From: a virus
Lineage: Duplodnaviria > Heunggongvirae > Uroviricota > Caudoviricetes
Direction: 5' to 3' (one strand)
Length of the DNA stretch: 64,000 nt
IMG/VR virus record: IMGVR_UViG_3300008120_000059
Coordinates: 1-64,000 of that record
Position 1 is the first letter of the stretch, and each line of letters opens with the position of its first letter. A program made the position numbers and the translations under genes. Of this stretch, positions 16,046-63,400 are shown piece after piece. Under the pieces are notes generated by a model. The model worked only from the letters and a program-made list of their open reading frames with translations. It was not told the DNA's origin and did no database searches.

Positions 16046-16783
16046 TCACCAATAACCAATATCTTTTTTGAAATATTCTTCGTTTTCCCTATTCAAAAAG
16101 GACTTAATGATTAGTTTAATCATTCCCAAATACCCCATTTTCTTGAATCTACGGTCATCTTGACCAACGTAATGTTCGGATATTTTAAACTTTTTTGAAT
16201 TGTATTTCCTACTTAAACCATAGTCTTCACTGTGTTGGTATTCCTCATTAAATTTACCTAATTCTCTAAATTTATCAGTTTTTGTCAAGAAAAAGGTACC
16301 AACAGCGAATGGACTGAATTTACTAATAATATTATTAACGGAATTAAAACAAACGAATACCAATTTGGACTTCCAATTTTTAGATGTTGATTTTATTTTA
16401 CATGTCATCAAATCCAAATCTTCCAAAATCATTTCCTCAATACAGTCGTGAATTGTAATTGAATTGAAGAATTGGATGTCAGCATCCACAAATAAAACAT
16501 ATTCAGTATTAACCAAATCACTCCCTAAATTTCTTGCTTCACCAACTTTACCACCGTCAATCATTTCTATCTTAAGTCTATCAGAGTACATCATAGACAT
16601 ATTATTGATAATCGCCCTTGTTCGGTCTGTTGAATGGTTATCAGCAATGATTACTCTTGTACCATCAATTAAAACTTGTTTGTGTATTGAGTCGAGAGTC
16701 TTCTTAATATACTTGTCTTCATTGTAACATGGAATTACAATGGTTAGTTTGTTTTTTATTTTTGTTGGTTTATAAAGTGGCAT
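16046..16783 (-). CDS. glycosyltransferase family 2 (GT-A fold)
   Basis: IVIPCYNEDKYI...HKQ start, ADNHSTD and FVDADI (DxD-like) motifs typical of GT2. Confidence 0.7.
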   Translation of the reverse strand: MPLYKPTKIKNKLTIVIPCYNEDKYIKKTLDSIHKQVLIDGTRVIIADNHSTDRTRAIINNMSMMYSDRLKIEMIDGGKVGEARNLGSDLVNTEYVLFVDADIQFFNSITIHDCIEEMILEDLDLMTCKIKSTSKNWKSKLVFVCFNSVNNIISKFSPFAVGTFFLTKTDKFRELGKFNEEYQHSEDYGLSRKYNSKKFKISEHYVGQDDRRFKKMGYLGMIKLIIKSFLNRENEEYFKKDIGYW

Positions 16784-44438: not shown

Positions 44439-45764
44439 TTAATTACTTAAGGGTGCTTTAATCGATGGGTGTGATTGATAATTTTCGATTTGAAAATCCT
44501 TATTTTCCAAATGAGTTATTAAAGATGAGTCTTCAGATAATGATTTATAAAATTCATCGGTCTTCATATGTTTTAGTTTGGGTAATTTATAAGGTTCTCT
44601 TGTGTATCGTGGTATTTTATATATCTCATAATATTCAGACATACCTCCACCAAATGGTGCTAAGTCTTTCAACGCACTTTTATAACCATTAGGACCCATC
44701 GCCTCTTTTAACATACCTTCTCTCTCTTCATGTGTATACTTTCTACCGATTTGTTCTCTTGCTTGTTCAACATGGTTACTATACAAATGAGTATCACCTA
44801 AATTACCAATCAACTCATCAGGTACCATATTTACTTCTTTAGCAATAATCTCAAGTAACAAACCGTAAGAAGCAATATTGAATGGTAGACCTAAGAATGT
44901 GTCTACTGAGCGTTGATTCCACATTAAAGAGATTGCTCGTTTAGGAACTCTTAAACTATCCATGTGAACATCGTGATAATCACTACTTTGATTTAAAGGG
45001 TCTTTTGTTGAGTTATAATAATTAATCCTTTCATCTAAACTCAACTCTCTCGTATAAACTTGAAATCCATAATGACAAGGTGGAAGAACCATTTGGTCCA
45101 GCTCTCCAACATTCCAAGCATTGACCATTAATCGTCTTGAGTCTGGATTTGTTTTAAGGTCGTTGATTAGGTTTGTGATTTGGTCTATTGAATTGTTTTG
45201 GTATTCTATTTTGACACCATACTTGGTAACATCTTCACCGATTTCAATTGCTTTTAGTACTCTGTGTTGGTCAGAACCTTTTACATCCTTTAAGTCGTAA
45301 TTAGTCACATTCTTTCTACCCCATCTTCTCCATTGCTTACCATACACAGGTCCGAGGTCACCCCACTTCTTAGCAAACTCATCATCGGTTTTTATTTTGT
45401 TGATGAATTCTTCTTTTGTTAATCGAAATCCTAACTCTAACATTTTTTCTTTTGACATATTAGGTAAGATTTTGGCATCTTCAATTAGATAGTTCTTATA
45501 CGCATCACCATCCCAAATATGACAATTGTTATCAACAAGGAACTTGATGTTTGTATCACCACGAAGGAACCATAACAATTCGGTTACCATCGTCTTCCAC
45601 GCCATTTTCTTGGTTGTAAGTAATGGAAACCCATCGGACATTTTATGACGGATTGTATAACCAAAAATAGATTTGGTTCCTGTACCTGTACGGTCTTTCT
45701 TTTCTACCCCATAATCTATAATAGTTTGGAGTAAGTCTGTGTATTGTTTATCTAATTTGTTCAT
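44439..45764 (-). CDS. thyA: thymidylate synthase (ThyA-type; or related dUMP hydroxymethylase) with three ~35 aa insertions and C-terminal extension
   Basis: DLGPVYGKQWR, SRRLMVNAWN, LPPCHYGFQVY, PFNIASYGLLLEIIA, GDTHLYSNH signature blocks; 441 aa vs about 265-320 typical. Confidence 0.8.
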   Translation of the reverse strand: MNKLDKQYTDLLQTIIDYGVEKKDRTGTGTKSIFGYTIRHKMSDGFPLLTTKKMAWKTMVTELLWFLRGDTNIKFLVDNNCHIWDGDAYKNYLIEDAKILPNMSKEKMLELGFRLTKEEFINKIKTDDEFAKKWGDLGPVYGKQWRRWGRKNVTNYDLKDVKGSDQHRVLKAIEIGEDVTKYGVKIEYQNNSIDQITNLINDLKTNPDSRRLMVNAWNVGELDQMVLPPCHYGFQVYTRELSLDERINYYNSTKDPLNQSSDYHDVHMDSLRVPKRAISLMWNQRSVDTFLGLPFNIASYGLLLEIIAKEVNMVPDELIGNLGDTHLYSNHVEQAREQIGRKYTHEEREGMLKEAMGPNGYKSALKDLAPFGGGMSEYYEIYKIPRYTREPYKLPKLKHMKTDEFYKSLSEDSSLITHLENKDFQIENYQSHPSIKAPLSN

Positions 45765-47701: not shown

Positions 47702-48826
47702 TTATTCTTCTTCATCTTTTCGATAACTTTCCAAGAGTTCCTCCCCTGAAAGTGTACCGTATTTATTTACAATTTTTTCGGTGTCTATTTCAACATTCAT
47801 CATGTGATGAACATTATTTAATTCTTCGGCTAATGATAAACTATCACTAATCACTTTAACGATTTTATATGGGTCCGCGTGTGATGCTGGTCTCCTGTCT
47901 TCAAGATAACCCTTCCATGTCTCACCAACGGATTTTGGTACACGGATAGATGCACCTCTGTCTGAGACACCCCAACTAAATTTATCAATAGATTGTGTCT
48001 CAAAATGACCTGTTAATCTCAAATGGTTATCAGAACCATAAGAGTCAATATGTTCTTGTGTTCTTGATTCAAAAGACCTAAAAATTGCATTGAAGTATTG
48101 TTCACCACCCTCTTCTCTCATTTTTTGATTTGAGAAATTTGTATGTAAACCTGAACCGTTCCATTCTCCGTGGGTCATCGGTTTGGGATGTAACTCAATA
48201 GAACGACCATATTTCTCAGCAATTTTATGTAAAAAATATCTACTCATCCATAAATCATCAGAAGCGGCAATTTTACCTGTTGCAAAAATTTGGTATTCCC
48301 ATTGACCTAATGCAACCTCTGAATTGGTTCCCTCCACATTGATGTCATATTTTAAACACATGTTCAAATGTTCATCAGAAATATTTCGACCAACAATATG
48401 TCCACCTACACCACAATAATAAATTCCTTGACCGTCAATGATACCATTTCTTTCAAATCCAAGAATTGGATTATTATGTGAAGAACGAATAAAATATTCC
48501 TGTTCAAATCCAACCCAAAAATTTACATCTTCCTCACCTACTTTTGCTCTATGATTTGATGGATGAATTTCATTATTACCATCTAAAACCTCACATAATA
48601 CATATACTGTATCAAGTGAACTATTTGTATGATATAATTTTACTGGCTTAAGATAACAATCTGAAAAGTTACCTTCCGCTTGTTTAGTTGAGCTTCCGTC
48701 AAACCCCCAATTGGGGATGTGTTTCAATTCAAATGGTGCCGGTAGGTCCACAATTTTTATTTTACTTCTGAGATTTGGCTCAGGGGAATACCCATCAAGC
48801 CATACGTATTCTACTTTTGTTTTCAT
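47702..48826 (-). CDS. glutamine synthetase type II (eukaryote-like GSII)
   Basis: EYVWLDG, NWGFDGSST, GFEQEY, YYCGVG, TNSEVALGQWEYQI, WNGSGLHTNFS, GASIRVP blocks align along the full 374 aa. Confidence 0.8.
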   Translation of the reverse strand: MKTKVEYVWLDGYSPEPNLRSKIKIVDLPAPFELKHIPNWGFDGSSTKQAEGNFSDCYLKPVKLYHTNSSLDTVYVLCEVLDGNNEIHPSNHRAKVGEEDVNFWVGFEQEYFIRSSHNNPILGFERNGIIDGQGIYYCGVGGHIVGRNISDEHLNMCLKYDINVEGTNSEVALGQWEYQIFATGKIAASDDLWMSRYFLHKIAEKYGRSIELHPKPMTHGEWNGSGLHTNFSNQKMREEGGEQYFNAIFRSFESRTQEHIDSYGSDNHLRLTGHFETQSIDKFSWGVSDRGASIRVPKSVGETWKGYLEDRRPASHADPYKIVKVISDSLSLAEELNNVHHMMNVEIDTEKIVNKYGTLSGEELLESYRKDEEE

Positions 48827-50932: not shown

Positions 50933-51008
50933 ATTGTATCGGACAGTCTAATAAATTGTCCGATATTTTTTGTCTTTTATAATATATATAAATTTATATA
51001 CTTATATT

Positions 51009-51258: not shown

Positions 51259-52716
51259 ATGATTACAATAGGTTACAGTACAAGAGAGTCCAACCCAAAA
51301 TTTCAAGAATATTTAAAAAAAACTTGTGGACACCCCAAAGTTCAAGTTATTGAAAAAGTAAACAATGGTGAAAAAAGTCTTTCACAAACTTACAATGAAA
51401 TTATTCAAGAGTCGATTCATGATATTGTCGTACTTTGTCATGATGACATTTACTTTAATACGACTTCGTGGGGTAGAAAATTAGTCAAACATTTTGAAGA
51501 ATCTGACTACGGGATTCTCGGTGTTGCCGGTACAACCAATATTCATGAGAGTGGTAGGTGGTGGACAGATAATACCAAAATGGTTGGTATTGTTAATCAT
51601 GAAAATGAGGGTAAAAAATGGGAATCGAGATATGCAAATGGAATCCCAAATTCAATTCACGAAGTTTGTTTAGTGGATGGTTTATTCATTGGAATCCACA
51701 AAAACAGAATAAAACACACTTTTGATGAGTCAGTACCGGGTTTTCATTTTTATGATATGGTATTCTGTACTAGCAATCACTTAAGTGAGGTAAACATCGG
51801 TGTTATATACAACATAAGAATCACTCACAAATCAATCGGAATGACCAATGATTCTTGGGAAAAGAATAGGGAATTTTACATTGAAAAATTTAAAGAGAAC
51901 CTACCAATTAATATAACACCAAAAATTGATTATGACATAACCAAACCAAAACAGTTTAAAGATAAATTTAATTTAATAGTTCAAACATCAAACGATAATG
52001 AAAATTTAATTCAGTTTTTTGAAAACATAAAAAAATTACCAGTGTTTGATAGTTTACAGATTTCACTCATCTCGACGGATACCAATATAGACAATATTAG
52101 AGAATTTGAATCTGAAAATATTAAAATTTACGAGGGTTTTTTTGATACATTAAATAAAAACTTATCAGTACTGAAATGGGATGAATCGTTTATGGAATCA
52201 AAAACAGATTTGTTATTTTTCAGTAATGATACTGTTACCGTATTGAACGACGTTTTCTCAAGTATGTATTCAATATTTAAGAGTGAAAAAAATACTTTTG
52301 GGTGCGTCTTTCCTACAGTATTAGAAAACGACCGAACAATTTTTTCAAATGGATTGGATATAGTTCAAAACAACGAACAGTTCAATTTAATTTTTAAAAA
52401 CAAATCATCTTTTTTCAATATTTTACACGGACACTTTCCAAACAATTTTGGTAGTATTAGTGACTTTTTTGCCACTACATCTACAAATTTAAAAATGATT
52501 GATTGGTTTGATATTAATTTAGAAACATCAATTTATAACTTAGATTTTGCGTTGAAAACTTTACTTAAAAAACGTAAAACATTCATTGACACAAACAGTG
52601 TGGTAATGATTGATATGGCATCAAAATTTGAAAAGGTTGATGTTGAATTAAAACAAGTCTTAGGTCAGTACATAAACTCACCTGAAATTAGAAAAAATAT
52701 CAAACAATTAAGATGA
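51259..52716 (+). CDS. two-domain putative glycosyltransferase (485 aa); N-terminal GT-A-like
   Basis: N-terminal Rossmann-like region with VVLCHDD (DxD-like); first gene of glycan island. Confidence 0.5.
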   Translation: MITIGYSTRESNPKFQEYLKKTCGHPKVQVIEKVNNGEKSLSQTYNEIIQESIHDIVVLCHDDIYFNTTSWGRKLVKHFEESDYGILGVAGTTNIHESGRWWTDNTKMVGIVNHENEGKKWESRYANGIPNSIHEVCLVDGLFIGIHKNRIKHTFDESVPGFHFYDMVFCTSNHLSEVNIGVIYNIRITHKSIGMTNDSWEKNREFYIEKFKENLPINITPKIDYDITKPKQFKDKFNLIVQTSNDNENLIQFFENIKKLPVFDSLQISLISTDTNIDNIREFESENIKIYEGFFDTLNKNLSVLKWDESFMESKTDLLFFSNDTVTVLNDVFSSMYSIFKSEKNTFGCVFPTVLENDRTIFSNGLDIVQNNEQFNLIFKNKSSFFNILHGHFPNNFGSISDFFATTSTNLKMIDWFDINLETSIYNLDFALKTLLKKRKTFIDTNSVVMIDMASKFEKVDVELKQVLGQYINSPEIRKNIKQLR

Positions 52717-53492
52717 TAAAAATTGTATCGGGATTTACAGAAAAAGGTGGTTCTACCACTTTTTTTATAAACTTAACAAATTTCTTAAATGAAAATGGTA
52801 TTGATTGCACATTTTACGGTAATCAGAATTACCATTTAGACAAATGTAAATCAGGGAACATTGAAAAAGATTTAAAGTATGAATCTGATGATATTGTAAT
52901 TACCCATTTTTTACAACTACAGGAAAGACCACCTGTTAAAAAAGTTATTTTGTCTTGTCATGAAAAATGGTGGTTCCCTGTTGGTAAAATTAAACAGTAT
53001 TGGGACCTGTGCGTGTTTTTACATGAAGAGCATCGAAAATATCACTCGGATTACAGGGGTGATTATGTAATAATACCAAACATCAAAGAAAATTTAATTA
53101 TTTCAAATAAAGAGCTGGTAAGAAATATTGCAGGAATTATTGGTACAATTGAAGACAGAAAACAGACCCATGTGTCAATACAAAGAGCATTAAAAGACAG
53201 GTGTGAAAAAATCTATTTGTTCGGTCACATCGGTGACCAAAACTATTTTGACAAATTGGTAAAACCTTTAATGAATCCAAGAGTAATTCATTACGGTCAC
53301 ACCACCAATAAACAAGAAATGTACGATATGATTGGTAAGGTATATCACTCATCAAAGGGTGAGGTTGCTTGTTTGGTTAAAGATGAATGTTATTTAACCG
53401 GTACAGAGTTTTATGGTAATGAAGAGACTATGAATGAAGTTTCTAAATTAAGTAACGAAGAGATATTAACACTTTGGAAAAACATATTTTAA
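52713..53492 (+). CDS. compact GT-B-like putative glycosyltransferase (259 aa)
   Basis: GGSTTFFINLTNFLNENG N-terminal and ...YHSSKGE... C-terminal blocks; weak. Confidence 0.4.
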   Translation: MIKIVSGFTEKGGSTTFFINLTNFLNENGIDCTFYGNQNYHLDKCKSGNIEKDLKYESDDIVITHFLQLQERPPVKKVILSCHEKWWFPVGKIKQYWDLCVFLHEEHRKYHSDYRGDYVIIPNIKENLIISNKELVRNIAGIIGTIEDRKQTHVSIQRALKDRCEKIYLFGHIGDQNYFDKLVKPLMNPRVIHYGHTTNKQEMYDMIGKVYHSSKGEVACLVKDECYLTGTEFYGNEETMNEVSKLSNEEILTLWKNIF

Positions 53493-53493
53493 A

Positions 53494-54216
53494 ATGAAGA
53501 TACACGCACATATACTGTCATGGAATGAAGAAAAAATATTACCATTCACATTGGATTACTATAGTACAATCTGTGAAAAAATATTCATATACGATAATAT
53601 GTCAACGGACTCCTCTGATGAGATTTATAAGAGGTACCCAAAAGTTGAGGTTATTAAATGGGATAGTGGTAATGAAATAAATGAAATTAATTACGTAAAC
53701 ATTAAATCCGAAGAGTATAAAAAAAGAAGTAGAGGTCAGGGTGTTGATTGGGTTATAGTTTGTGACTGTGATGAGTTTATATACCATGAAAATCTTATGG
53801 ATAAACTTCAAGAGTACAAAGAAATGGGTATAACCGTCCCAAGAATAGACGGTCACGACATGGTTAGTACTGAATTTCCAATATACGACGGTGAATTCAT
53901 TACAACAAAAATTAAAACAGGTTCACAAACGTATGAACCAATGTGTAAAAATATAATTTTTCATCCTGATTTAGATATAAAATACGGCATTGGTGGTCAC
54001 AGTTTTAATTCTGTTGATGGTAAATTTTCGGATGAGCGGGAAATAAAACTTCTTCACTATAAATTCTTGGGTAAAGACTACGTGAAGAACATTTACATTT
54101 CAAGAGCAAAGAGATTGTCATCGTTCAATAAACAACATAAATTCGGTGAACATTATTTTAATTTACCATTCAATTACATGGACAGCATGTTAAAAGAAAA
54201 TTATCAAGTTATATGA
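53494..54216 (+). CDS. GT-A-fold glycosyltransferase (Glyco_tranf_2_4-like)
   Basis: ILSWNEEKILPFTLDYY ... IYDNMSTDSSDEI ... CDCDEF. Confidence 0.5.
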   Translation: MKIHAHILSWNEEKILPFTLDYYSTICEKIFIYDNMSTDSSDEIYKRYPKVEVIKWDSGNEINEINYVNIKSEEYKKRSRGQGVDWVIVCDCDEFIYHENLMDKLQEYKEMGITVPRIDGHDMVSTEFPIYDGEFITTKIKTGSQTYEPMCKNIIFHPDLDIKYGIGGHSFNSVDGKFSDEREIKLLHYKFLGKDYVKNIYISRAKRLSSFNKQHKFGEHYFNLPFNYMDSMLKENYQVI

Positions 54217-55034
54217 GGAAAATACTTATATCGGATTTTACCATTAAAGAAGTACCTCACGGTGGTTCTGAATGGGTGAATCAAGTTTTAATTGATAGAT
54301 TTAATCTTGAGTTTGAATATTCAAACCAAGTCAAGTCATTTGATTACAACGCCCTGTATATTATATCAAATATTTCTTTGATGAACCCAAACTTGGTTAA
54401 TCAAATACAAAATTTGAACTACGTCATTATTGAAAACGATTATAAAATATGTGCAAGTAGACACCCATGGAGATATACCGACAACATAATTCCGATTGAG
54501 GAAAGAACCAACTATTCTCTTTACCGGAATGCAAAAGCGGTATTTGTTCAAACAACCGACCACATGAACGTTTATCTTAAAAACGATGTTGTTGCTAATT
54601 TTATAAATCTGAATAGTTCGATATGGTCAAATGAGGACTTAGAATTATTGAGGAATTTAAATAAATCCAACAATGTTAAAAACGACAAATATTCTGTTTA
54701 CTATACAAATAATTGGATAAAGAACACCCAAGGTAGTCTGAAGTATTGTTCTGAAAATAAATTACCGGTCCATATTCTTAAAGAATCTAAAGACAGAGTT
54801 GAATTTTTAAGTAATATGGCCAAATGTAAAGGTATTGTGTTTTTCCCGATAGCAAGAGAAACTTTTTGTAGACTGGTTGTTGAGGCAAAATGTTTAGGTT
54901 TGGAAGTAATAACGACACAAAATTATGGTGCAAGTTTAGAAGAATGGTTTAATAGGTTATCAGGTGATGAATTAATTGATTTCTTAGAAACTAACACTTT
55001 AAAAAATTTAGAAATCATTTCAACTTATATATGA
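54213..55034 (+). CDS. GT-B-like (GT4-type) putative glycosyltransferase (273 aa)
   Basis: C-terminal ETFCRLVVEAKCLGLEVITT resembles the GT4 E-x7-E region. Confidence 0.4.
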   Translation: MRKILISDFTIKEVPHGGSEWVNQVLIDRFNLEFEYSNQVKSFDYNALYIISNISLMNPNLVNQIQNLNYVIIENDYKICASRHPWRYTDNIIPIEERTNYSLYRNAKAVFVQTTDHMNVYLKNDVVANFINLNSSIWSNEDLELLRNLNKSNNVKNDKYSVYYTNNWIKNTQGSLKYCSENKLPVHILKESKDRVEFLSNMAKCKGIVFFPIARETFCRLVVEAKCLGLEVITTQNYGASLEEWFNRLSGDELIDFLETNTLKNLEIISTYI

Positions 55035-56023
55035 TATTATTTTGTTACGGCACAAGACCTGAGTATATTAAAATAAAAAAATTAATAGAAATGTGTGGGG
55101 AAAGTATTCCCCATAAAATTTTATATGTTACCCAACACAAAGATATTGTATTGGGTGATTTTGATTATAAATTATCCATTGATGATACGTGTGAAAATAG
55201 ATTGGATAGTATTATGTCATCCGTATTTTTAAATTTTAAAAAAGAATTTTTGGAAGGGGTTACACATATACTTATCCAAGGGGACACCGCAACCGCTCTT
55301 TCATTATCCCTAATAGGATTACACCATAAAAAAGAAGTGATTCATTTAGAAGCGGGATTACGGACATATGACTACAATCACCCTTACCCCGAAGAAATGT
55401 ATCGGCAGTTAATTAGTAGAATTTCAAACTATAATCTTTGCCCAACAGAAAGTAACAAGATGAACTTAGAAAATGAAAAAGTTCAGGGTAAAAATTTTGT
55501 AGTTGGCAATACCGTATTAGATAATCTTAATAAAGAAAATATTACATACGAAAATAAAGTCTTAATCACTTTACATAGAAGAGAGAATCATGAGATGATG
55601 TCGGAGTGGTTTGATGTTATCAATCGATTAGCAAAGAATAATCCTGAATTAAAATTCATTCTTCCAATACACCCAAACCCAAACGTCATAAAACACAAAC
55701 ATATATTGACACATGTTGATGTTATTGAACCATTAACCCATGATAAATTTATTGAGGAATTCAAATCCTGTAAATTACTAATTTCAGATAGTGGGGGTGT
55801 TCAAGAAGAGGCGTCGTTCCTAAATAAGAAAGTTATTGTATGTAGAGAAAAAACTGAGAGACCTGAGTCCTTGGGTAAAACGTCTTTTATATGTAAAAAA
55901 CCCATTGACTTAGAAGGTATTTTTTACGATATTATTAACGATTTCCAAACAGAATATGATTGTCCTTTTGGTGATGGTAATTCTTGTGAAAGAATCATTG
56001 AAATATTTAGAAAAATTGTATGA
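55031..56023 (+). CDS. UDP-N-acetylglucosamine 2-epimerase (non-hydrolysing, WecB/MnaA-like)
   Basis: GTRPEYIK, HLEAGLRTYD, ITLHRREN, HPNPNV, SDSGGVQEEA, PFGDGNSCERI blocks align with WecB along the full length. Confidence 0.75.
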   Translation: MILFCYGTRPEYIKIKKLIEMCGESIPHKILYVTQHKDIVLGDFDYKLSIDDTCENRLDSIMSSVFLNFKKEFLEGVTHILIQGDTATALSLSLIGLHHKKEVIHLEAGLRTYDYNHPYPEEMYRQLISRISNYNLCPTESNKMNLENEKVQGKNFVVGNTVLDNLNKENITYENKVLITLHRRENHEMMSEWFDVINRLAKNNPELKFILPIHPNPNVIKHKHILTHVDVIEPLTHDKFIEEFKSCKLLISDSGGVQEEASFLNKKVIVCREKTERPESLGKTSFICKKPIDLEGIFYDIINDFQTEYDCPFGDGNSCERIIEIFRKIV

Positions 56024-56748
56024 GTATAACGGTAATATTAAATGGGTATAAAAGACCACATGTTCTCCAAAAACAATTGGAATCAATTAGAAATCAAAGT
56101 GTCCAACCCGAATCAATTTTATTTTGGCAAAATTCTGGTTCTCAATTTGATGAGGGACTAACCAAAGATTTAATTCACGCATCTTGTAATAGTAATTTAG
56201 GTGTGTGGGCAAGATTTGCATTTGCTTTAAATGCCAACACAGAATATATTTGTGTTTTTGATGATGACACAATACCGGGTAAACTATGGTTAGAAAACTG
56301 TCTAAACACCATGAAAATTCAAGAAGGTTTATTAGGAACTATCGGTGTAAAATTTCACACAAAAAACTCTTATTGGCCAGCAACAAGAGTCGGTTGGGAC
56401 CAACCTAACGAAGAAATTGAAAAGGTCGACATTGTTGGTCACTCGTGGTTCTTTAAAAGAGAATGGTTATCGATATTTTGGAGAGAATTACCTGAAATCA
56501 ATCAGAGTAAATTAGTTGGTGAGGATATGCACTTTTCATATACATTACAGAAATACGCAAATATCGGAACTTACGTTCCTCCCCATCCTAAAGAAAATAG
56601 AGAAATGTGGGGTAGTATACCAGAATATGCATGGGAACATGGAACTGATTCCAACGCAATTTCCGTAAATCATTCAAATATGAATTTAATGGGTGAAGTT
56701 TACCGTGGGTATGTAAATAAAGGATTTAAGACAATATTAAATGATTGA
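56020..56748 (+). CDS. GT-A-fold glycosyltransferase (242 aa)
   Basis: ITVILNGYKRPHVLQKQLESIRNQ ... VFDDDTIPG (DxD). Confidence 0.5.
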   Translation: MSITVILNGYKRPHVLQKQLESIRNQSVQPESILFWQNSGSQFDEGLTKDLIHASCNSNLGVWARFAFALNANTEYICVFDDDTIPGKLWLENCLNTMKIQEGLLGTIGVKFHTKNSYWPATRVGWDQPNEEIEKVDIVGHSWFFKREWLSIFWRELPEINQSKLVGEDMHFSYTLQKYANIGTYVPPHPKENREMWGSIPEYAWEHGTDSNAISVNHSNMNLMGEVYRGYVNKGFKTILND

Positions 56749-57460
56749 AAAGTATATTGAAGATTTTAATTCGTTTTGGGAAAAGATAGATAGTCGAACT
56801 AACTTTTCTTTTGTTAGATATGCCGATGGTGAAGTGATGTTAATGAATAATTCACCGATAGAAAAGAATACACAAGCGTATCAAAACGATAAATGGTTTT
56901 CGAGTGGGGGACAAACCAAATTAGGTGTGGATTTAAATGAATGTATAGGGTTGAACGACCCAAATTTTTATTTTGCAATATCCTCCAAAACTGATAGTAT
57001 TAGAGACTATAATTTTTTATATGATAGAATACAAAATAAATCAAACATTACATTTGCTAACCTATGGATTAACGCAAATTACAAAGAAAATATATCAAGA
57101 ATAAGAAATATAAATCGAGATGTTGTTTTAATTTGTAATGAAAATTGTGATTTAAAAAACATACCATTTAGTGTATCAGAATTTGTACCGTTCCCTAATG
57201 ATTGTGTAAACTATTGGGAAGAACATAGAGATTCGTTTTTAGAAAAAATATACAATGTTTCTTCAAAATATAAAGATACTTTATTTATCGTATGTTGTGG
57301 ACCAACATCTGCTGTTATCATAAAACATATGTTTACAAATAATAGTAATAACACTTATATTGATTTTGGTTCCGCATTAGATGTATTCATACATAATAAA
57401 ATAACTAGACCATACATGTATGAAGGGTCACAATATCATAATCACATATCAAAATTTTAA
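56741..57460 (+). CDS. hypothetical protein in glycan island (239 aa)
   Basis: ORF with overlapping start. Confidence 0.45.
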   Translation: MIEKYIEDFNSFWEKIDSRTNFSFVRYADGEVMLMNNSPIEKNTQAYQNDKWFSSGGQTKLGVDLNECIGLNDPNFYFAISSKTDSIRDYNFLYDRIQNKSNITFANLWINANYKENISRIRNINRDVVLICNENCDLKNIPFSVSEFVPFPNDCVNYWEEHRDSFLEKIYNVSSKYKDTLFIVCCGPTSAVIIKHMFTNNSNNTYIDFGSALDVFIHNKITRPYMYEGSQYHNHISKF

Positions 57461-57466
57461 TTCAGT

Positions 57467-58057
57467 ATGAATAATGATTTTTGTGTCATAGTACAAGGAC
57501 CTTCAGACTACGTTAAAGAATTAAAAAACGCTTGGACTGGTTATGATTTGATTTGGTCAACATGGCAAGGTGAAGAATCAAAATACGATACTAATGATGT
57601 TGTCTTATTCAACAGTATTCCACACGATAGGGGTGTACAAAATATAGCACTACAAAAAATATCAACTTTGAATGGAATAATGAAAGCCAAAGAAATAGGT
57701 TACAACAGAGTCCTTAAATGGAGAAGTGATTTACTACCATCTAATGCAAATAGATTAGTTTCCACATTTAAAAAAGAGTGTGTAAATTTTTTGACTTGGC
57801 ATAATGAAGGAAAATATTTTGTTGATTATTTTGTGGAGGGTGAAATAGATACGGTGTTTGATATTTGGAATGTATCTACCATACACGATGAGTATTCGGA
57901 AAAAATAATCACGGAAAATATAATATCACTTAACTATAAAAATATAAACTTTATGGGTGGCGAATTAAGTAATGATAATGAAATTTTTTGGTTAAAACGA
58001 AATATTAATTTGTCCACATATAAAGACGCACCATGTTATAGTATGGTGGTGATTTAA
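57467..58057 (+). CDS. hypothetical protein in glycan island (196 aa)
   Basis: ORF. Confidence 0.45.
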   Translation: MNNDFCVIVQGPSDYVKELKNAWTGYDLIWSTWQGEESKYDTNDVVLFNSIPHDRGVQNIALQKISTLNGIMKAKEIGYNRVLKWRSDLLPSNANRLVSTFKKECVNFLTWHNEGKYFVDYFVEGEIDTVFDIWNVSTIHDEYSEKIITENIISLNYKNINFMGGELSNDNEIFWLKRNINLSTYKDAPCYSMVVI

Positions 58058-58068
58058 AAATTATAAAA

Positions 58069-58803
58069 ATGATAGATAATTCAAAATTTATTGACGACGC
58101 ATTTACTCAAGATGAATTAAATAGGGGTGCCTTTACCGATTTGAATGGTAGATGTCCATTATGGACAACAAAAATGATTAATGTTATAAAAGATAAAATT
58201 GACTTTAATGATGTCAACACAATATTAGATATTGGGTCAAGAGATGGTTGCCAAAGTTTAGAGTTAAATAGATGGTTTCCACATGCTAAAATATATGCGT
58301 TTGAACCAGTAAAAGAAAACTACGAATTTACAGTTAAGAACGTTGAGAAAATTAATAACATAAAAGTTTACCAATACGCAATAAACAATTACAACGGTAA
58401 AACTAAATTTTACGAAGTTTATAATGGAAATGTGGGTGCCAGTTCTTTATTACAGACAACAAACCACTGGCGTTCATCTCAGTGGGCCCAAAAGGAAACT
58501 GAGGTTGACTGTATTGTTCTTAGTGATTGGTTAAAAGAAAATGATATTAAAAGTGTTGATTTGATTTGGATGGATGTTCAAGGTGCAGAAAATATCGTAT
58601 TAGACTCTCTAAAAGAATATTTAAATGATGTAAAAATAATAACCACCGAAGTAGGGTTACAGGAATTATATCGTGGTTCTACAAGTAAATCTGAACTAGA
58701 TGAAAAACTAAATAGGTTTATACCAATAGACGAGTCGCCAGAATCTTCAAACACAGAAATGGATGTGGTTTATATCAACAAAAATTTAACACCTTATGGA
58801 TAA
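58069..58803 (+). CDS. FkbM-family SAM-dependent methyltransferase
   Basis: ILDIGSRDGCQSLEL ... AFEP ... IWMDVQGAE blocks. Confidence 0.6.
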   Translation: MIDNSKFIDDAFTQDELNRGAFTDLNGRCPLWTTKMINVIKDKIDFNDVNTILDIGSRDGCQSLELNRWFPHAKIYAFEPVKENYEFTVKNVEKINNIKVYQYAINNYNGKTKFYEVYNGNVGASSLLQTTNHWRSSQWAQKETEVDCIVLSDWLKENDIKSVDLIWMDVQGAENIVLDSLKEYLNDVKIITTEVGLQELYRGSTSKSELDEKLNRFIPIDESPESSNTEMDVVYINKNLTPYG

Positions 58804-59497
58804 TAAAATTTGTTACGTTACTTATACAAATTCAAAATGTTCAGATATTTTGGATATGTTCTTGTTAGAACAAAAAAAGTACACAAACTTACCGATGTAT
58901 TTTATTACAGATGTAATGATACCCGAGCAAATTTGTTTTTTATATGAAAATCAAGAACCTTATTATGAATCATGGTTAAAGTGTTTATCTTCAATACCAT
59001 ATGACTATTTTATATACTTACAAGAAGACTTTATTCTTTATAACAATGTCAGTCATGATAAAATTTTTAATTACCTCGATTTTTTACATGATAACCAAGA
59101 ATATTCGTTCATTAGATTGTTAAAATCGGGGTCTGTTAAAGATAAAAAAATTTATGAGACCTTATATGAAATAGAATCCGACAATAAAGATATATTTTCT
59201 ATGCAACCAACTATTTGGAAAAAAGATGATTACATTAAAATCATGAAAGGTACCAAAAATAATATGTGGTTAGAGAATGAAACATATAGAAATTTTATGA
59301 TAGAAAACAACATCAAAGGTTTATATCATTACGATGGTGAAAACAAAAGGGGGTTGAATCATTTTGATAGTTCTGTTTATCCATATATAGCAACGGCTTT
59401 AGTTAGAGGTAAATGGAATTTATCTGAATACCCTAATGAACTCTCTCCATTAATAAATGAATATGAAATAAACGTAAATGTTCGGGGGATACATTAA
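58796..59497 (+). CDS. hypothetical protein in glycan island (233 aa)
   Basis: ORF. Confidence 0.45.
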   Translation: MDNKICYVTYTNSKCSDILDMFLLEQKKYTNLPMYFITDVMIPEQICFLYENQEPYYESWLKCLSSIPYDYFIYLQEDFILYNNVSHDKIFNYLDFLHDNQEYSFIRLLKSGSVKDKKIYETLYEIESDNKDIFSMQPTIWKKDDYIKIMKGTKNNMWLENETYRNFMIENNIKGLYHYDGENKRGLNHFDSSVYPYIATALVRGKWNLSEYPNELSPLINEYEINVNVRGIH

Positions 59498-59499
59498 TA

Positions 59500-60174
59500 A
59501 TGAAAATTGTTCTATCTTTTTACACCAACAATAAATTTAGTAACACCGTTCAAAAATTAATCGGATATTATAATTCACGTGGTTTCAATGATATCCGAGG
59601 ATTTAAATCTGAAGATGTTAAGAAAGGTATTTTTTATGAAAACCATAAAGAAATATTAGATTGTGAAACGGGTGATGGATTTTGGTTGTGGAAACCAAAA
59701 ATTATTTTAGATATTTTGAATGAATTAGAAGATGGGGATGCATTAATTTATACCGATGCCGGTGATTTAGTTGATGTTGATTATAATACGATTGCAAATT
59801 ATTTGAAAGATAATGATTATTATTTTACAAATTGGAATGGAAATCGTTGGCCTCAAAAAATATGTACAAAAAGAGACTGTTTTATCTTGATGGATTGTGA
59901 TGAAGAAAAGTTTCATGAAACACCACAGATGGAAGCAGGATTTATCATCATTAAAAAAACCAAACAAATGATGGAATTTGTTCACGATTATTTTAAGTAT
60001 TGTAGTATTAAACAGATAGTTGACAATGAACCAAATCAAATTGGTGAGAATTTTCCAAATTGGCAATTCCATAGAAATGACCAAAGTATATTAACTAACT
60101 TGGTTGTGAAACATAATTTAAAATTTGATTATTGTCTCGATTATAGAATAAAATACAACGTATATATACCATGA
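59500..60174 (+). CDS. hypothetical protein in glycan island (224 aa)
   Basis: ORF. Confidence 0.45.
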   Translation: MKIVLSFYTNNKFSNTVQKLIGYYNSRGFNDIRGFKSEDVKKGIFYENHKEILDCETGDGFWLWKPKIILDILNELEDGDALIYTDAGDLVDVDYNTIANYLKDNDYYFTNWNGNRWPQKICTKRDCFILMDCDEEKFHETPQMEAGFIIIKKTKQMMEFVHDYFKYCSIKQIVDNEPNQIGENFPNWQFHRNDQSILTNLVVKHNLKFDYCLDYRIKYNVYIP

Positions 60175-60932
60175 AATTTATTGCATTAAATTATAATTAT
60201 GACTTAAATAAAATGTCCCAAATCGGTCGGAAATGGGCGTTTGATGTCTACAAAAATAAAGAGTTTATATCTGATTATTCATCAGCATCTTATGCTTCAT
60301 TTATTGATAAGAATAGAAAAAGTATTTTACATCTTTATACTGATGATGTTGAGGGTATGAAAGAAAAAATGAACAAGTATAACATTGACCAAGACAGAAT
60401 TATTTATATTGATTACACGGAACAACTTACCAAATACAATGAAAGTCTTAATTATAGTTTTACAGTTTTAAATGATTTTATTAATTATGCAAAATCAGAA
60501 ACTGAGTACACTGTAAAAATCGATAATGATTTATTTTTTCATTCGGAATTACCACAAATTGATGATAATTCTATTATGGTTTGGAAGTATGAAAGAATCG
60601 TTAGGAATGGTGACCCGAGATGGGGTGAAATAAAAATATGTAAACAGGTTACAAATGATTTAGATTTTAAAATTTATAATTTAGGTATTTTTGGGTTGCC
60701 CGCGGATTACAATATTCACCAAGCAAAAAAAATTATGGAAGATATGATATCGGTAGACATTTCAGATGTGACTGATACAGACTCGAAGATTTATCATTGT
60801 TGTGAGCAAACGGCAAATAATTGGATTTTTCACAAAGAAAATTATAACGTGATTGAAACGTATAATTATGTTGACCACCTGTTTGATAGAAAAGGTGATT
60901 GTATAGAATTATCAAAATATCTTTTAAAATGA
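60171..60932 (+). CDS. hypothetical protein in glycan island (253 aa)
   Basis: ORF. Confidence 0.45.
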   Translation: MKFIALNYNYDLNKMSQIGRKWAFDVYKNKEFISDYSSASYASFIDKNRKSILHLYTDDVEGMKEKMNKYNIDQDRIIYIDYTEQLTKYNESLNYSFTVLNDFINYAKSETEYTVKIDNDLFFHSELPQIDDNSIMVWKYERIVRNGDPRWGEIKICKQVTNDLDFKIYNLGIFGLPADYNIHQAKKIMEDMISVDISDVTDTDSKIYHCCEQTANNWIFHKENYNVIETYNYVDHLFDRKGDCIELSKYLLK

Positions 60933-61696
60933 AAACATCAGTAGTATTGACAATTCACAACAAGGAATTCTTAATGAACCAAGTGGTGAGTAACTTGGTA
61001 AATAATTTATCAGAACTGAATGACCAGATTGTAATAGTTTTTGATGGTTGTACAGATAATAGTGAAGGTATTGTTCGTGACAATTTAAAGAGAGTTAGTA
61101 ATAAAAAAATTGATTACCTGTATGCCGACAATGTTTTTGAAACCAAAGCAAATAATATTGGTCTAAAGTCTGTTATAAATGATTATGTGGTCTTAATCCA
61201 AGATGATATGGTTGTCACAGAAAAAGATTTTGATAAGAGGATGTTGGAACCGTTCATAAAATATAGTGATGTGTTCGCTGTAACATCTTTTGTTGCTCAC
61301 AATAACATCTATAATGAACAAACAAAACAAATAAATTACATCGATATTGCACATAAAGATAACTCATCAAGAGATATTTTTTATGCTAGAGAATATGGTA
61401 ACAGAGGTCCACTAATGTACAACTATAATGACGTGGTCAAATTAAATTTTTTAGACGAATATTTTTCACCCCAAAATTATGATGATATGGATATGTCCAT
61501 GAGAGCATTCAAAGAACTCGGAAAAGTGTCAGGTTTATATACGATAGATTATATTTCCGAACCTGGATGGGGGACCACTAGACAAAAAAATCAATCATTA
61601 CATAATAATTTAGTTTACGTAAACGCAGCAAAAATACTTGAAAAACACAGGGATTTATTGTATAATAAAGACAAATATAAAGAGGATAGAGAATGA
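60929..61696 (+). CDS. glycosyltransferase family 2 (start moved to ATG 60929, ATGA overlap)
   Basis: MKTSVVLTIHNKE ... VFDGCTDNS ... IQDDM. Confidence 0.6.
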   Translation: MKTSVVLTIHNKEFLMNQVVSNLVNNLSELNDQIVIVFDGCTDNSEGIVRDNLKRVSNKKIDYLYADNVFETKANNIGLKSVINDYVVLIQDDMVVTEKDFDKRMLEPFIKYSDVFAVTSFVAHNNIYNEQTKQINYIDIAHKDNSSRDIFYAREYGNRGPLMYNYNDVVKLNFLDEYFSPQNYDDMDMSMRAFKELGKVSGLYTIDYISEPGWGTTRQKNQSLHNNLVYVNAAKILEKHRDLLYNKDKYKEDRE

Positions 61697-62310
61697 ATAA
61701 TATAGAGCTAAAGACATTTATGATTAATCATAATGTTAATATCCATGGTGTGATTCACGTTGGTGCACATTTTGGTCAAGAAGATGAAGTTTATAAGGAA
61801 TTGGGTATTTCAAACAGAATATACTTTGAACCTCTATCGTCTAATTTTGAGACCTTAAAAGAAAAAATAGATGATGACGCAATTTTAGTTAAACTGGCGT
61901 TAGGTAATGAAAAGAGAAAAGTTTCTATGTTTGTAGAATCCTTTAATAAAGGTATGTCATCCTCAATATTAGAACCGAAATTACATTCTGTTCAATTTCC
62001 TCATATCGTTTTTGATTCTGTAGAAGAAGTTGAAATGGATAGATTGGATGATTTAAATTACGATTTTTCAAAATACAACATGATGAATATCGATGTTCAA
62101 GGTTTTGAATTAGAGGTTCTCAAAGGTTCCGTGAATACATTAATCAACATTGACTACGTTATTGTAGAAATAAACAGAGCCGAATTATATAAAGGTTGTC
62201 CACACTTTGATGAAATAAACAATTGGATGACACATCATGGGTTTACCTGTGTTGAACAATTTTGGTGGGGTAATAATTTTGGTGAGGGATTTTTTAAAAA
62301 AATAAAATGA
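61693..62310 (+). CDS. FkbM-family SAM-dependent methyltransferase (second copy)
   Basis: HVGAHFGQE ... YFEP ... NIDVQGFELEVLKG. Confidence 0.6.
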   Translation: MNNIELKTFMINHNVNIHGVIHVGAHFGQEDEVYKELGISNRIYFEPLSSNFETLKEKIDDDAILVKLALGNEKRKVSMFVESFNKGMSSSILEPKLHSVQFPHIVFDSVEEVEMDRLDDLNYDFSKYNMMNIDVQGFELEVLKGSVNTLINIDYVIVEINRAELYKGCPHFDEINNWMTHHGFTCVEQFWWGNNFGEGFFKKIK

Positions 62311-63368
62311 AACGAGTATTAGTATTGGGTGGTGGCGGATTTATTGGTGGTCACCTAGCAAAAAGATTAAAAAATGAAGGAAACTACGTAAGAGTAGTTG
62401 ATATAAAAAGACACGAATATTTTGATGAGAAAGACTTTTGTGACGAATTCTTAATATATGACCTTACGGACCCAAAAAACGTATCATCAGTAATGAGATT
62501 AGAAGAATTAAATGGTACGATATTACCGTTTAATTATTACAAACAACCATATTCAACTGAGGTCCCATTTGATGAGGTTTATCAATTAGCTGCCGATATG
62601 GGTGGTGCTGGTTACATCTTCACTGGTGAAAATGACGCGAATGTTATGCACAATTCTGCAATGATAAATTTAAATGTTGTAAATGAATCAGTGAAGACAA
62701 AAGTTAAGAAGATTTTTTATTCATCATCGGCATGTATGTATCCTGAACACAATCAATTAGACCCTAACAACCCAAATTGTGAAGAATCATCAGCATATCC
62801 CGCGAATCCTGATTCAGAATATGGTTGGGAAAAACTTTTTTCGGAAAGGTTGTACTTGGCTTTTCACAGAAATCACGGTTTGGATGTTCGAATTGCTAGA
62901 TTTCATAACATATTTGGTCCATATGGTACGTGGAAAGGTGGTAAAGAAAAAGCACCAGCAGCTATGTGTAGAAAAGTTGCCGAAATGTTAGACGGTGGAG
63001 AAATTGAAGTTTGGGGTGATGGTCAACAGACTCGTTCATTCTTATATGTGGATGAATGTGTTGAAGCGGTTTTAAGACTAATGAGACAAGACTCTTTTTT
63101 GGGTCCTGTAAACATTGGTTCTGAAGAGAAAGTAACAATTAATGATTTGGCTCAAATGGCTATAGATATTTCAGGTAAAGAAATTTATATCAGAAATATT
63201 GGTGGGGAAGAATTTAAACAGAAGTATGGATATAAATGTCCTGTTGGTGTGAGGGGAAGAAATTCAGACAATAAATTATACCACGAAAAAATAGGTTGGG
63301 TTGTTAGTGAACCTCTGTTCTATGGAATGGAAAAAACCTATAAATGGATTAATAGTTTAGTTAAATAA
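62307..63368 (+). CDS. GDP-mannose 3,5-epimerase (GME)-like NAD-dependent epimerase
   Basis: VLGGGGFIGGHLAKRLK (GxxGxxG); LAADMGG; FYSSSACMYPE; RFHNIFGPYGTWKGGKEKAPAAMCRK; WGDGQQTRSF; VRGRNSDN; near full-length collinearity with plant GME. Confidence 0.75.
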   Translation: MKRVLVLGGGGFIGGHLAKRLKNEGNYVRVVDIKRHEYFDEKDFCDEFLIYDLTDPKNVSSVMRLEELNGTILPFNYYKQPYSTEVPFDEVYQLAADMGGAGYIFTGENDANVMHNSAMINLNVVNESVKTKVKKIFYSSSACMYPEHNQLDPNNPNCEESSAYPANPDSEYGWEKLFSERLYLAFHRNHGLDVRIARFHNIFGPYGTWKGGKEKAPAAMCRKVAEMLDGGEIEVWGDGQQTRSFLYVDECVEAVLRLMRQDSFLGPVNIGSEEKVTINDLAQMAIDISGKEIYIRNIGGEEFKQKYGYKCPVGVRGRNSDNKLYHEKIGWVVSEPLFYGMEKTYKWINSLVK

Positions 63369-63400
63369 AAAAGGGGGTTATTGACCCCCTTCTTTTTTTT
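63368..63400. terminator. bidirectional rho-independent terminator (AAGGGGG-ttattga-CCCCCTT)
   Basis: GC stem flanked by A6 and T8 between convergent genes. Confidence 0.7.

Follow-up and report, generated by a model that had tools for sequence, protein, structure and literature searches.

Positions 1 to 64,000 of IMG/VR virus record IMGVR_UViG_3300008120_000059 (Caudoviricetes), analyzed here in full and referred to as the window, carry a glycan-synthesis operon of 15 co-directional genes on the + strand (51259–63368). Five of these genes, named O1 to O5, are open reading frames (ORFs) that a preliminary description of the DNA had proposed as new families of glycosyltransferases or sugar-modifying enzymes. 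The reading favored here, with a probability of roughly 60%, is that O1–O5 are soluble, very divergent glycosyltransferase (GT)-type enzymes of known kinds and not new folds. The informative matches of four of the five ORFs are all to glycosyltransferases, in keeping with one part of the earlier proposal. The part concerning novelty fares less well: the structure models of O4 and O5 are ordinary GT-A enzymes, the sequence and motif of O1 relate it to the known GT-D fold, and O2 and O3 attach weakly to the WavE and TIGR04440 families. Hence, the preliminary description is right about the reality of the genes and their role in glycan synthesis and over-reaches on novelty, with a small chance of something new staying with O2 and O3. 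A confident match to a function outside glycan synthesis, which would have pointed in a different direction, was found for none of O1–O5.

What is the evidence that O1–O5 are genes of a single operon? All five were recovered on the + strand with exactly the boundaries first proposed for them, which are given below with each ORF. They are real genes, judging by the presence of each exact protein on 32–36 public contigs of up to 288 kb, where it is named only “hypothetical protein,” and by the many full-length homologues that each of them has. Coupling to the neighboring genes had been claimed, and the tight packing that this implies is borne out by overlapping junctions and by flanking terminator-like hairpins. 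Of the 14 junctions in the operon, 11 overlap by 4 or 8 nt and the others are gaps of 1–11 nt; around O1–O5 the spacings are, in order, −8, +6, +11, −8, +2, −4, and −4 nt. Upstream of the operon, a terminator-like hairpin on the + strand (50936–50966) has a 12-bp stem followed by a T run. A second one, also on the + strand and 3 nt past the final gene (63371–63391), has a 9-bp stem with 5 GC pairs followed by CTTTTTTTT; both hairpins are consensus matches only. Together, the overlapping junctions and the bracketing hairpins suggest that the 15-gene block is a single transcription unit. The operon context is glycan synthesis, as had been described: the genes of known family encode four GT2-type transferases, a UDP-N-acetylglucosamine (UDP-GlcNAc) 2-epimerase, two FkbM methyltransferases, and a GDP-mannose 3,5-epimerase. 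The sole link found by BLASTP among the 15 operon proteins is that between the two FkbM methyltransferases, and thus O1–O5 are not paralogues.

The term “unannotatable,” which had been applied to O1–O5, holds for single-sequence searches at curated cut-offs (Pfam, PHROGs, NCBIfam, and PDB) and ceases to hold once profile or structure methods are used. Motifs, too, are easier to place than was thought. While DxD had been described as absent, the literal string occurs four times in O4 and four times in O5, and one of these occurrences, D118-N-D120 of O5, is invariant. Similarly, where no motif was thought to be recognizable, O1 has an invariant D29-G30-E31, O3 an invariant E77-D78, and O4 an invariant D86 directly after a beta-strand. 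There is no sign of a GT-B fold: none of the five ORFs has a Glycos_transf_1 or GT4 match in Pfam or NCBIfam, and the O4 and O5 models are single-domain GT-A. Literal E-x7-E strings do occur in O1–O3, as string matches only. The structural comparison that had been recommended was run on O4 and O5, and both models have a GT-A fold and no new fold.

O4 (59500–60174, 224 aa) belongs, as judged from its predicted structure, among the GT-A enzymes, in a large family that is rich in viral members and lies outside Pfam. Its AlphaFold model has a predicted local distance difference test (pLDDT) score of 96.5 and a predicted template modeling (pTM) score of 0.92, and shows a GT-A fold. The closest structure is domain 1 of the chlorovirus protein A064R. 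A HMMER search of 1.84 billion representative sequences with O4 gave 3858 matches at E ≤ 1e-3 and 1653 at E ≤ 1e-10, and many of these relatives are parts of proteins of 400–1000 aa. In ten such multi-domain relatives, the partner domains are GT25, GT11, GT15, and GT2, and the O4-like stretch is blank in Pfam. There is no credible Pfam GT match for O4 itself, and its 93 homologues give sporadic weak ones (three to Nucleotid_trans, two to GT34, and one to GT8). A Foldseek comparison to BFVD gave E values down to 2e-19, with template modeling (TM) scores of 0.79–0.86 among the named neighbors. These neighbors include proteins from Hyperionvirus (where the domain is fused to an S-adenosylmethionine [SAM] methyltransferase), uncultured Caudovirales, and Synechococcus phage S-SRM01, alongside several nameless entries. 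Three conserved motifs stand out in O4: G60/W64-K65-P66 (G-x-x-x-W-K-P), Y84-x-D86-x-G88, and H191-R192-x-D194-Q195-S196. D86, which follows strand 81–85 of the model, is invariant in 93 of 93 sequences and is the sole invariant acidic residue.

The comparison of O4 to A064R is instructive. Domain 1 of A064R (2p6w), from chlorovirus PBCV-1, is a beta-L-rhamnosyltransferase of the capsid N-glycan pathway, and the protein also has a sugar methyltransferase domain (PMC9614988). O4 resembles it in being a small, soluble, viral GT-A domain. There is also a parallel in the association with methylation: in Hyperionvirus, relatives of O4 are joined to a SAM methyltransferase, and the O4 gene itself is located between FkbM methyltransferase genes. 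Unlike A064R, O4 has Y-x-D-x-G instead of a canonical DxD, and the identity between the two is 11%. A tblastn search of GenBank phage records with O4 matched only Prochlorococcus phage P-TIM68 and uncultured phages. In P-TIM68 (162993–164594), the O4-like domain is 39% identical to O4 and makes up the N-terminal portion of a “hypothetical protein” of 533 aa, whose gene sits in a cluster with two “putative glycosyltransferase” genes; thus, the gap in annotation extends to a cultured cyanophage.

O5 (60171–60932, 253 aa) is likewise, on the strength of its model, a metal-dependent GT-A enzyme, of a type resembling the retaining enzymes of GT8. The AlphaFold model (pLDDT 96.4, pTM 0.92) has a GT-A fold. 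In an alignment of 72 sequences, K116, D118, N119, D120, H209, and Q213 are invariant. The DxD motif formed by D118-N119-D120, present in 72 of 72 sequences, directly follows central strand 114–117 and is therefore placed where GT-A enzymes bind metal and nucleotide sugar. Four GT8-type enzymes, namely Neisseria LgtC (1g9r), glycogenin (3u2t), WbbM (6u4b), and the Dictyostelium Skp1 alpha-galactosyltransferase (6mw8), are the reference points for O5, which resembles them in the placement of its DxD right behind the central strand and has H209 as an invariant histidine toward its C terminus. In LgtC and glycogenin, the C-terminal histidine is the third metal ligand, and it is possible that H209 of O5 has this role. 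O5 differs from the same four enzymes in that its identity to them is 12%–13% and it has neither a Pfam Glyco_transf_8 match nor a PDB sequence match. Indeed, O5 gives no match to any Pfam family at E ≤ 1, which leaves it outside PF01501 (CAZy GT8) as currently modeled, and a profile of the 72 sequences finds no match in PDB. Because the model is GT-A, yet the identity is 12%–13% and the profile finds nothing in PDB, O5 represents a family that is new in sequence but has a well-known fold. As far as it can be detected, and unlike GT8-type enzymes, the family is narrow: the homologues form 130 clusters, and each of the 120 listed shares at least 50% identity, is free of Pfam domains, and goes by no name other than “hypothetical protein.”

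O1 (56741–57460, 239 aa) is a candidate GT-D (DUF1792-type) enzyme, with a fold that is predicted from its relatives. It matches the Pfam GT-D-like family PF22882 with E = 1.2e-4 (21.9 bits) over positions 10–209 of the 210-position profile, and NCBIfam GT-D_rel with E = 1.4e-4 (21.6 bits, against a cut-off of 75). Among 27 orthologues, 22%–48% identical and gathered from related loci, seven match GT-D-like and three match GT-D PF08759, the best E value being 9.7e-8. When a profile of the 27 orthologues is compared to PDB, the top match is 4phr/4pfx (GalT1, DUF1792; E = 6.9e-4), and in the HMMER alignment RyaDGE of O1 falls on RFGDGE, with an xGP segment also aligned. DUF1792 is the founding GT-D enzyme, in which an Asp-X-Glu motif coordinates Mn2+ (PMC6493773). 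Such a motif is found near the N terminus of O1, where D29-G30-E31 is invariant in 27 of 27 orthologues; R26, D208, G210, and R223 are also conserved. O1 would bind Mn2+ and a nucleotide sugar via D29-x-E31.

The best reference point for O1 is dGT1 (GalT1; 4pfx, 4phr) of Streptococcus parasanguinis, in which a GT-D domain is fused to a GT-A domain and the two act in successive steps of a protein O-glycan (PMC5063993). O1 has the N-terminal R-x-x-D-G-E and the later xGP segment of this enzyme and is similar in length to the Pfam GT-D-like model. In addition, a GT2 (GT-A) gene accompanies O1 in 31 of 31 loci, mirroring the GT-A/GT-D fusion. There are also differences. The GT2 and O1 of the operon are separate proteins in the reverse order (GT-A first), and the similarity of O1 is marginal (E values of ~1e-4 to 1e-3), with the fold predicted only. 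Moreover, O1 comes from a phage whose predicted host is Gram-negative, and it lacks a serine-rich-repeat adhesin context.

O3 (58796–59497, 233 aa) is a probable GT-A-like glycosyltransferase, distantly related by sequence to TIGR04440. It has 320 homologues, none of which carries a Pfam domain, and a Pfam scan of 70 of them found no recurrent credible family, just scattered matches at chance level. NCBIfam is more informative: 19 of 35 diverse members of the O3 family match TIGR04440, which is described as a glycosyltransferase, with a best E value of 5.9e-6, while every other family is matched by two members at most. The match of O3 itself to TIGR04440 (E = 0.035) covers residues 49–106 and spans a QEDF motif. 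Invariant residues in the O3 family are Y10, E77-D78 (in the motif [QH]-E-D, with E77-D78 in 35 of 35), Q137, P196, G205, and W207. The acidic pair E77-D78 would stand where GT-A enzymes carry DxD. A profile search of PDB with the O3 family found no relative, and no characterized member of TIGR04440 was found in the literature.

O2 (57467–58057, 196 aa) is the least certain assignment of the five; its sequence relatives make it a WavE-like protein, with the likeness in its N-terminal domain. It has 44 homologues (41%–94% identity), none of them annotated, and its invariant residues are Q10-G11, S31, W33, K84-W85-R86, D88, D120, and E145. When O2 and its homologues are scanned singly, 17 of 45 match WavE PF07507, with a best E value of 3.4e-5, and every other family is matched by at most two. 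One orthologue scores above the Pfam WavE cut-off (29.9 versus 27 bits; E = 4.4e-7), over profile positions 26–108 of 305. WavE takes its place in the wav cluster for the lipopolysaccharide (LPS) core of Vibrio cholerae, and the likeness lies in the N-terminal 90–100 residues of the O2 family, including the Q-G-P and S-T-W segments. Unlike the 305-position WavE model, O2 is 196 aa long, and it does not match the model as a whole. A profile search of PDB with O2 gave nothing.

Several of these results weigh against the assignment of O1–O5 to known kinds of glycosyltransferase. O1 scores below the GT-D-like cut-off (21.9 versus 27 bits). O4 lacks a canonical DxD: position 88 is G in 68 of 93 sequences, and D89 is found in 44 of 93. 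The residue-level equivalence of O5 H209 to the metal-binding histidine of GT8 is putative. O3 is far below the TIGR04440 cut-off (13.8 versus 70 bits), and all members of its family are below 70 as well. O2 itself has no match to any family in Pfam, PHROGs, NCBIfam, or PDB, all WavE matches in its family are confined to approximately positions 26–120 of 305 (the first third of the profile), and no demonstrated activity of WavE (PF07507) was found in the literature. Finally, profile-profile comparison (hhalign) of O2 and O3 to the GT-A genes of the operon gave no significant result; the same is true of O2, O3, O4, and O5 compared among themselves and to the operon GT2 genes, the best result being O3 against the GT2 gene at 60929 (E = 0.021, 135 columns, probability 2%). 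Might O2, O3, or both be something other than glycosyltransferases of known fold? They could have a new transferase fold, or a different sugar-modifying or accessory role, such as that of an acyl- or phosphotransferase, a scaffold, or a chaperone for the neighboring transferases. This would fit with the lack of significance for either protein in Pfam at curated thresholds, in PDB profiles, or in profile-profile comparison to GT-A genes, with the coverage by O2 of just one-third or so of the WavE model, and with the failure to find a characterized WavE or TIGR04440 member in the literature. It is nonetheless improbable. The weak matches are highly non-random, with 17 of 45 and 19 of 35 sequences falling on a single family and no more than two on any other, and invariant acidic residues follow hydrophobic, strand-like segments in both proteins (K-W-R-S-D88 in O2 and Y-L-Q-E77-D78 in O3). 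O3 also lies behind GT2 and O1 in 31 of 31 loci.

What would the operon make? Whereas the folds of the O4 and O5 models, the family ties, the motifs, the operon, and the synteny are matters of observation, the catalytic activities, donors, order of action, and acceptor are those that we infer. O1–O5 would act within the one 15-gene operon of a large, uncultured phage with a predicted Bacteroidota host. The operon would make its own donors: UDP-N-acetylmannosamine (UDP-ManNAc), by way of the 2-epimerase, and GDP-L-galactose or GDP-L-gulose, by way of the GDP-mannose 3,5-epimerase. Up to ~11 transferases would then add sugars stepwise, with the two FkbM methyltransferases O-methylating some of them. 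The conserved core, consisting of the 2-epimerase, GT2, O1, and O3, would probably build the inner glycan, and O2, O4, O5, and the remaining transferases would be variable decorators. The product would be a methylated heteroglycan, probably with ManNAc and L-galactose or L-gulose, assembled in the cytoplasm. Such an arrangement is similar to that of other viral glycan clusters (chlorovirus, mimivirus, cyanophages such as P-TIM68, mycobacteriophage virion glycosylation, and moraphages), which likewise combine nucleotide-sugar enzymes of viral origin with many soluble transferases and with methyltransferases for sugars; P-TIM68 also has an O4-like domain within its GT cluster.

Which molecule receives the glycan? 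A phage protein, probably one of the virion, is the tentative preference, at somewhat less than even odds, over a lipid-linked envelope glycan of the host, itself conceivable though a degree less favored. The tilt toward a phage protein comes from the lack of membrane segments, the lack of a flippase, polymerase, or priming transferase in the window, and the protein-glycan roles of the nearest characterized relatives. All 15 operon products lack a membrane segment (the hydrophobicity of every 19-residue stretch stays below 1.6), and no Wzx, Wzy, priming transferase, flippase, or polymerase is present among the Pfam-annotated genes of the window. There is precedent for glycosylation of phage virions (PMC12619734). 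Two points tell against a phage-protein acceptor. There are no virion genes within the 64-kb window, so no particular acceptor can be proposed. The lack of membrane segments, moreover, does not exclude action on undecaprenyl-linked intermediates of the host, because many transferases of that type are peripheral. Thus, the same enzymes could serve to remodel the host envelope, extending undecaprenyl-linked precursors of LPS, capsule, or S-layer with the help of the host priming enzyme, flippase, and ligase, and thereby blocking superinfection or changing the display of receptors. The only family tie of O2 is to WavE, named for LPS core synthesis; O-antigen and capsule loci typically contain genes of the GT2, GT8-like, FkbM, and nucleotide-sugar epimerase types; the G+C content of the island (0.285–0.306) is below that of most of the window (mostly 0.31–0.39); and P-TIM68 has a similar cluster of unannotated GT genes. 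All of these observations fit with envelope remodeling, which is nevertheless judged somewhat less likely: the operon has no priming phosphoglycosyl transferase, flippase, polymerase, or ligase, and its products have no membrane segment. In addition, the core of the module is kept across phages at 22%–55% protein identity, which suggests a phage-intrinsic target over a glycan specific to a host strain, and it is on protein glycans that the characterized relatives, GT-D and A064R, act (PMC5063993 and PMC9614988). Phage DNA is another potential acceptor, given that phage transferases can hypermodify DNA with glycans, as described in a preprint (bioRxiv 10.1101/2023.12.21.572611), and that the window encodes an unusually long, 441-aa thymidylate-synthase-family protein and a DNA N6/N4 methyltransferase. 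The likelihood of glycosylated bases is very low, however, because a complex heteroglycan is indicated by the gene set, with its up to eleven transferases, its UDP-GlcNAc 2-epimerase and GDP-mannose 3,5-epimerase, and its two sugar methyltransferases, and because neither a TET/JBP-type dioxygenase nor a base-modifying kinase is seen among those genes of the window that have a Pfam annotation. To return to the preferred phage-protein acceptor, its most specific form would be a self-contained protein glycosylation system of the giant-virus style, located in the cytoplasm, of a Bacteroidota jumbo phage, with a methylated virion glycan containing ManNAc and L-galactose or L-gulose, a core of 2-epimerase, GT2, O1, and O3, and O2 and/or O3 representing transferase families (possibly folds) that have no characterized relative; this full combination is a long shot.

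What are the implications of these assignments? First, five “hypothetical protein” records can now be given a label (GT-D-like for O1, WavE-like for O2, TIGR04440-like for O3, and GT-A transferase for O4 and O5), along with a set of candidate catalytic residues for each. Second, O4 and O5 stand for sequence families without a Pfam model; the O4 family numbers thousands of proteins and recurs as a module in multi-domain transferases, both viral and cellular. Third, a large, uncultured, aquatic phage is very fully equipped for glycan synthesis, with ~11 transferases, a 2-epimerase and a GDP-mannose 3,5-epimerase of its own, and two sugar methyltransferases, and the core module of this equipment is kept across many related phages. 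Fourth, if the target is indeed the virion, Bacteroidota jumbo phages would join giant viruses and actinophages as viruses that make complex protein glycans. The outcome at the level of folds is as expected and overturns no current knowledge; the value lies in annotation and not in new enzyme folds.

The other genes of the operon, all on the + strand, are as follows. The first gene (51259–52716, 485 aa) has an N-terminal GT2-like domain (Pfam Glyco_tranf_2_5, E = 2.9e-24, residues 34–210). It is followed by an ORF (52713–53492, 259 aa) with no match in Pfam, PHROGs, or NCBIfam, and by a GT2-family glycosyltransferase gene (53494–54216, 240 aa; Pfam Glyco_tranf_2_4, E = 3.2e-15). The next ORF (54213–55034, 273 aa) has a sub-threshold C-terminal match to GT-B transferases of the GT1/4 type (Pfam Glycos_transf_1, E = 0.0025, 17.8 bits against a cut-off of 26.4). 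Both this ORF and that at 52713–53492 are without a Pfam family, and neither was included in the preliminary description. The gene at 55031–56023 encodes the UDP-GlcNAc 2-epimerase homologue (Pfam Epimerase_2, E = 4e-60), the likely source of UDP-ManNAc, and it precedes the gene for a GT2-family (GT-A) glycosyltransferase (56020–56748, 242 aa; Pfam Glycos_transf_2, E = 1e-6) that overlaps O1 by 8 nt. Between O2 and O3 is the first FkbM-family SAM methyltransferase gene (58069–58803; Pfam Methyltransf_21, E = 1e-19), the product of which is a candidate for sugar O-methylation. Downstream of O5 is another GT2-family glycosyltransferase gene (60929–61696; Pfam Glycos_transf_2, E = 1.9e-12), whose ATG at 60929 overlaps the O5 stop codon (ATGA) and is also the start used in public gene calls. 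The second FkbM-family methyltransferase (61693–62310; Pfam Methyltransf_21, E = 1.3e-16) is 26% identical to the first. The final gene (62307–63368) encodes the GDP-mannose 3,5-epimerase homologue: a phmmer search of PDB matches Arabidopsis GME (2c59) with E = 1.3e-87, compared to 2e-21 for the runner-up family, and there is a Pfam Epimerase match (E = 1.1e-40). This enzyme is the likely source of GDP-L-galactose or GDP-L-gulose, donor sugars that, to our knowledge, would not be expected in a phage. The G+C content of the island is the minimum of the window, at 0.285–0.306 over 52001–62000, and the island starts near a switch of coding strand and of GC-skew sign at ~50–52 kb.

How widely is this gene arrangement kept? 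With O3 as the anchor, 35 related loci were found in IMG/VR, and island relatives occur on IMG/VR contigs of up to 366 kb. Across the 35 loci, O1 and the GT2 gene at 56020 are each present in 31, the 2-epimerase in 27, O2 in 14, O5 in 13, and O4 in three; the ORFs at 54213–55034 and 52713–53492 are present in nine and seven, respectively. The order GT2, O1, O3 and the shared strand are kept in 31 of 31 loci, with GT2 and O1 abutting in 18 of these and O1 and O3 in 16, and the proteins of the core module are 22%–55% identical across phages. No nucleotide match to the island was found by megablast against 50,697 GenBank phage records, and tblastn searches of the same records with O1, O2, O3, and O5 likewise gave no match. 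Homologues of O3 are also found on contigs of metagenome-assembled genomes (MAGs) labeled Rickettsiales, Vampirovibrionales, Sericytochromatia, Promethearchaeota, and Balneolaceae. Three MAG contigs, labeled Rickettsiales or Balneolaceae, also carry the GT2 gene plus O1 and/or the 2-epimerase; MAG contigs with the module are either mis-binned phage contigs or cases of gene transfer.

The phage may belong to the moraphage lineage, to which it is likened by shared features and not by sequence comparison. Moraphages are aquatic phages of 200–307 kb with predicted Bacteroidota hosts, some of which encode glutamine synthetase, and four of their core orthologous groups are predicted glycosyltransferases (PMC12619734). 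The fit comes from a glutamine synthetase gene (47702–48826, − strand), a helicase with its closest counterparts in Bacteroidota phages, contigs as long as 288 kb, and the lack of tRNA genes in the 64-kb window. The helicase is of the UvrD type, and its nearest isolate relatives, at 33%–36% identity, are from phages of Bacteroides, Chryseobacterium, and Flavobacterium. Thioredoxin, glutaredoxin, and a DNA N6/N4 methyltransferase are also encoded in the window. The 441-aa thymidylate-synthase-family protein is encoded at 44439–45764 on the − strand; typical ThyA enzymes are markedly shorter, and this protein could be a fusion or a pyrimidine hydroxymethylase. Far from the island, another GT2-family glycosyltransferase gene (16046–16783, − strand) adjoins a metallophosphoesterase gene.

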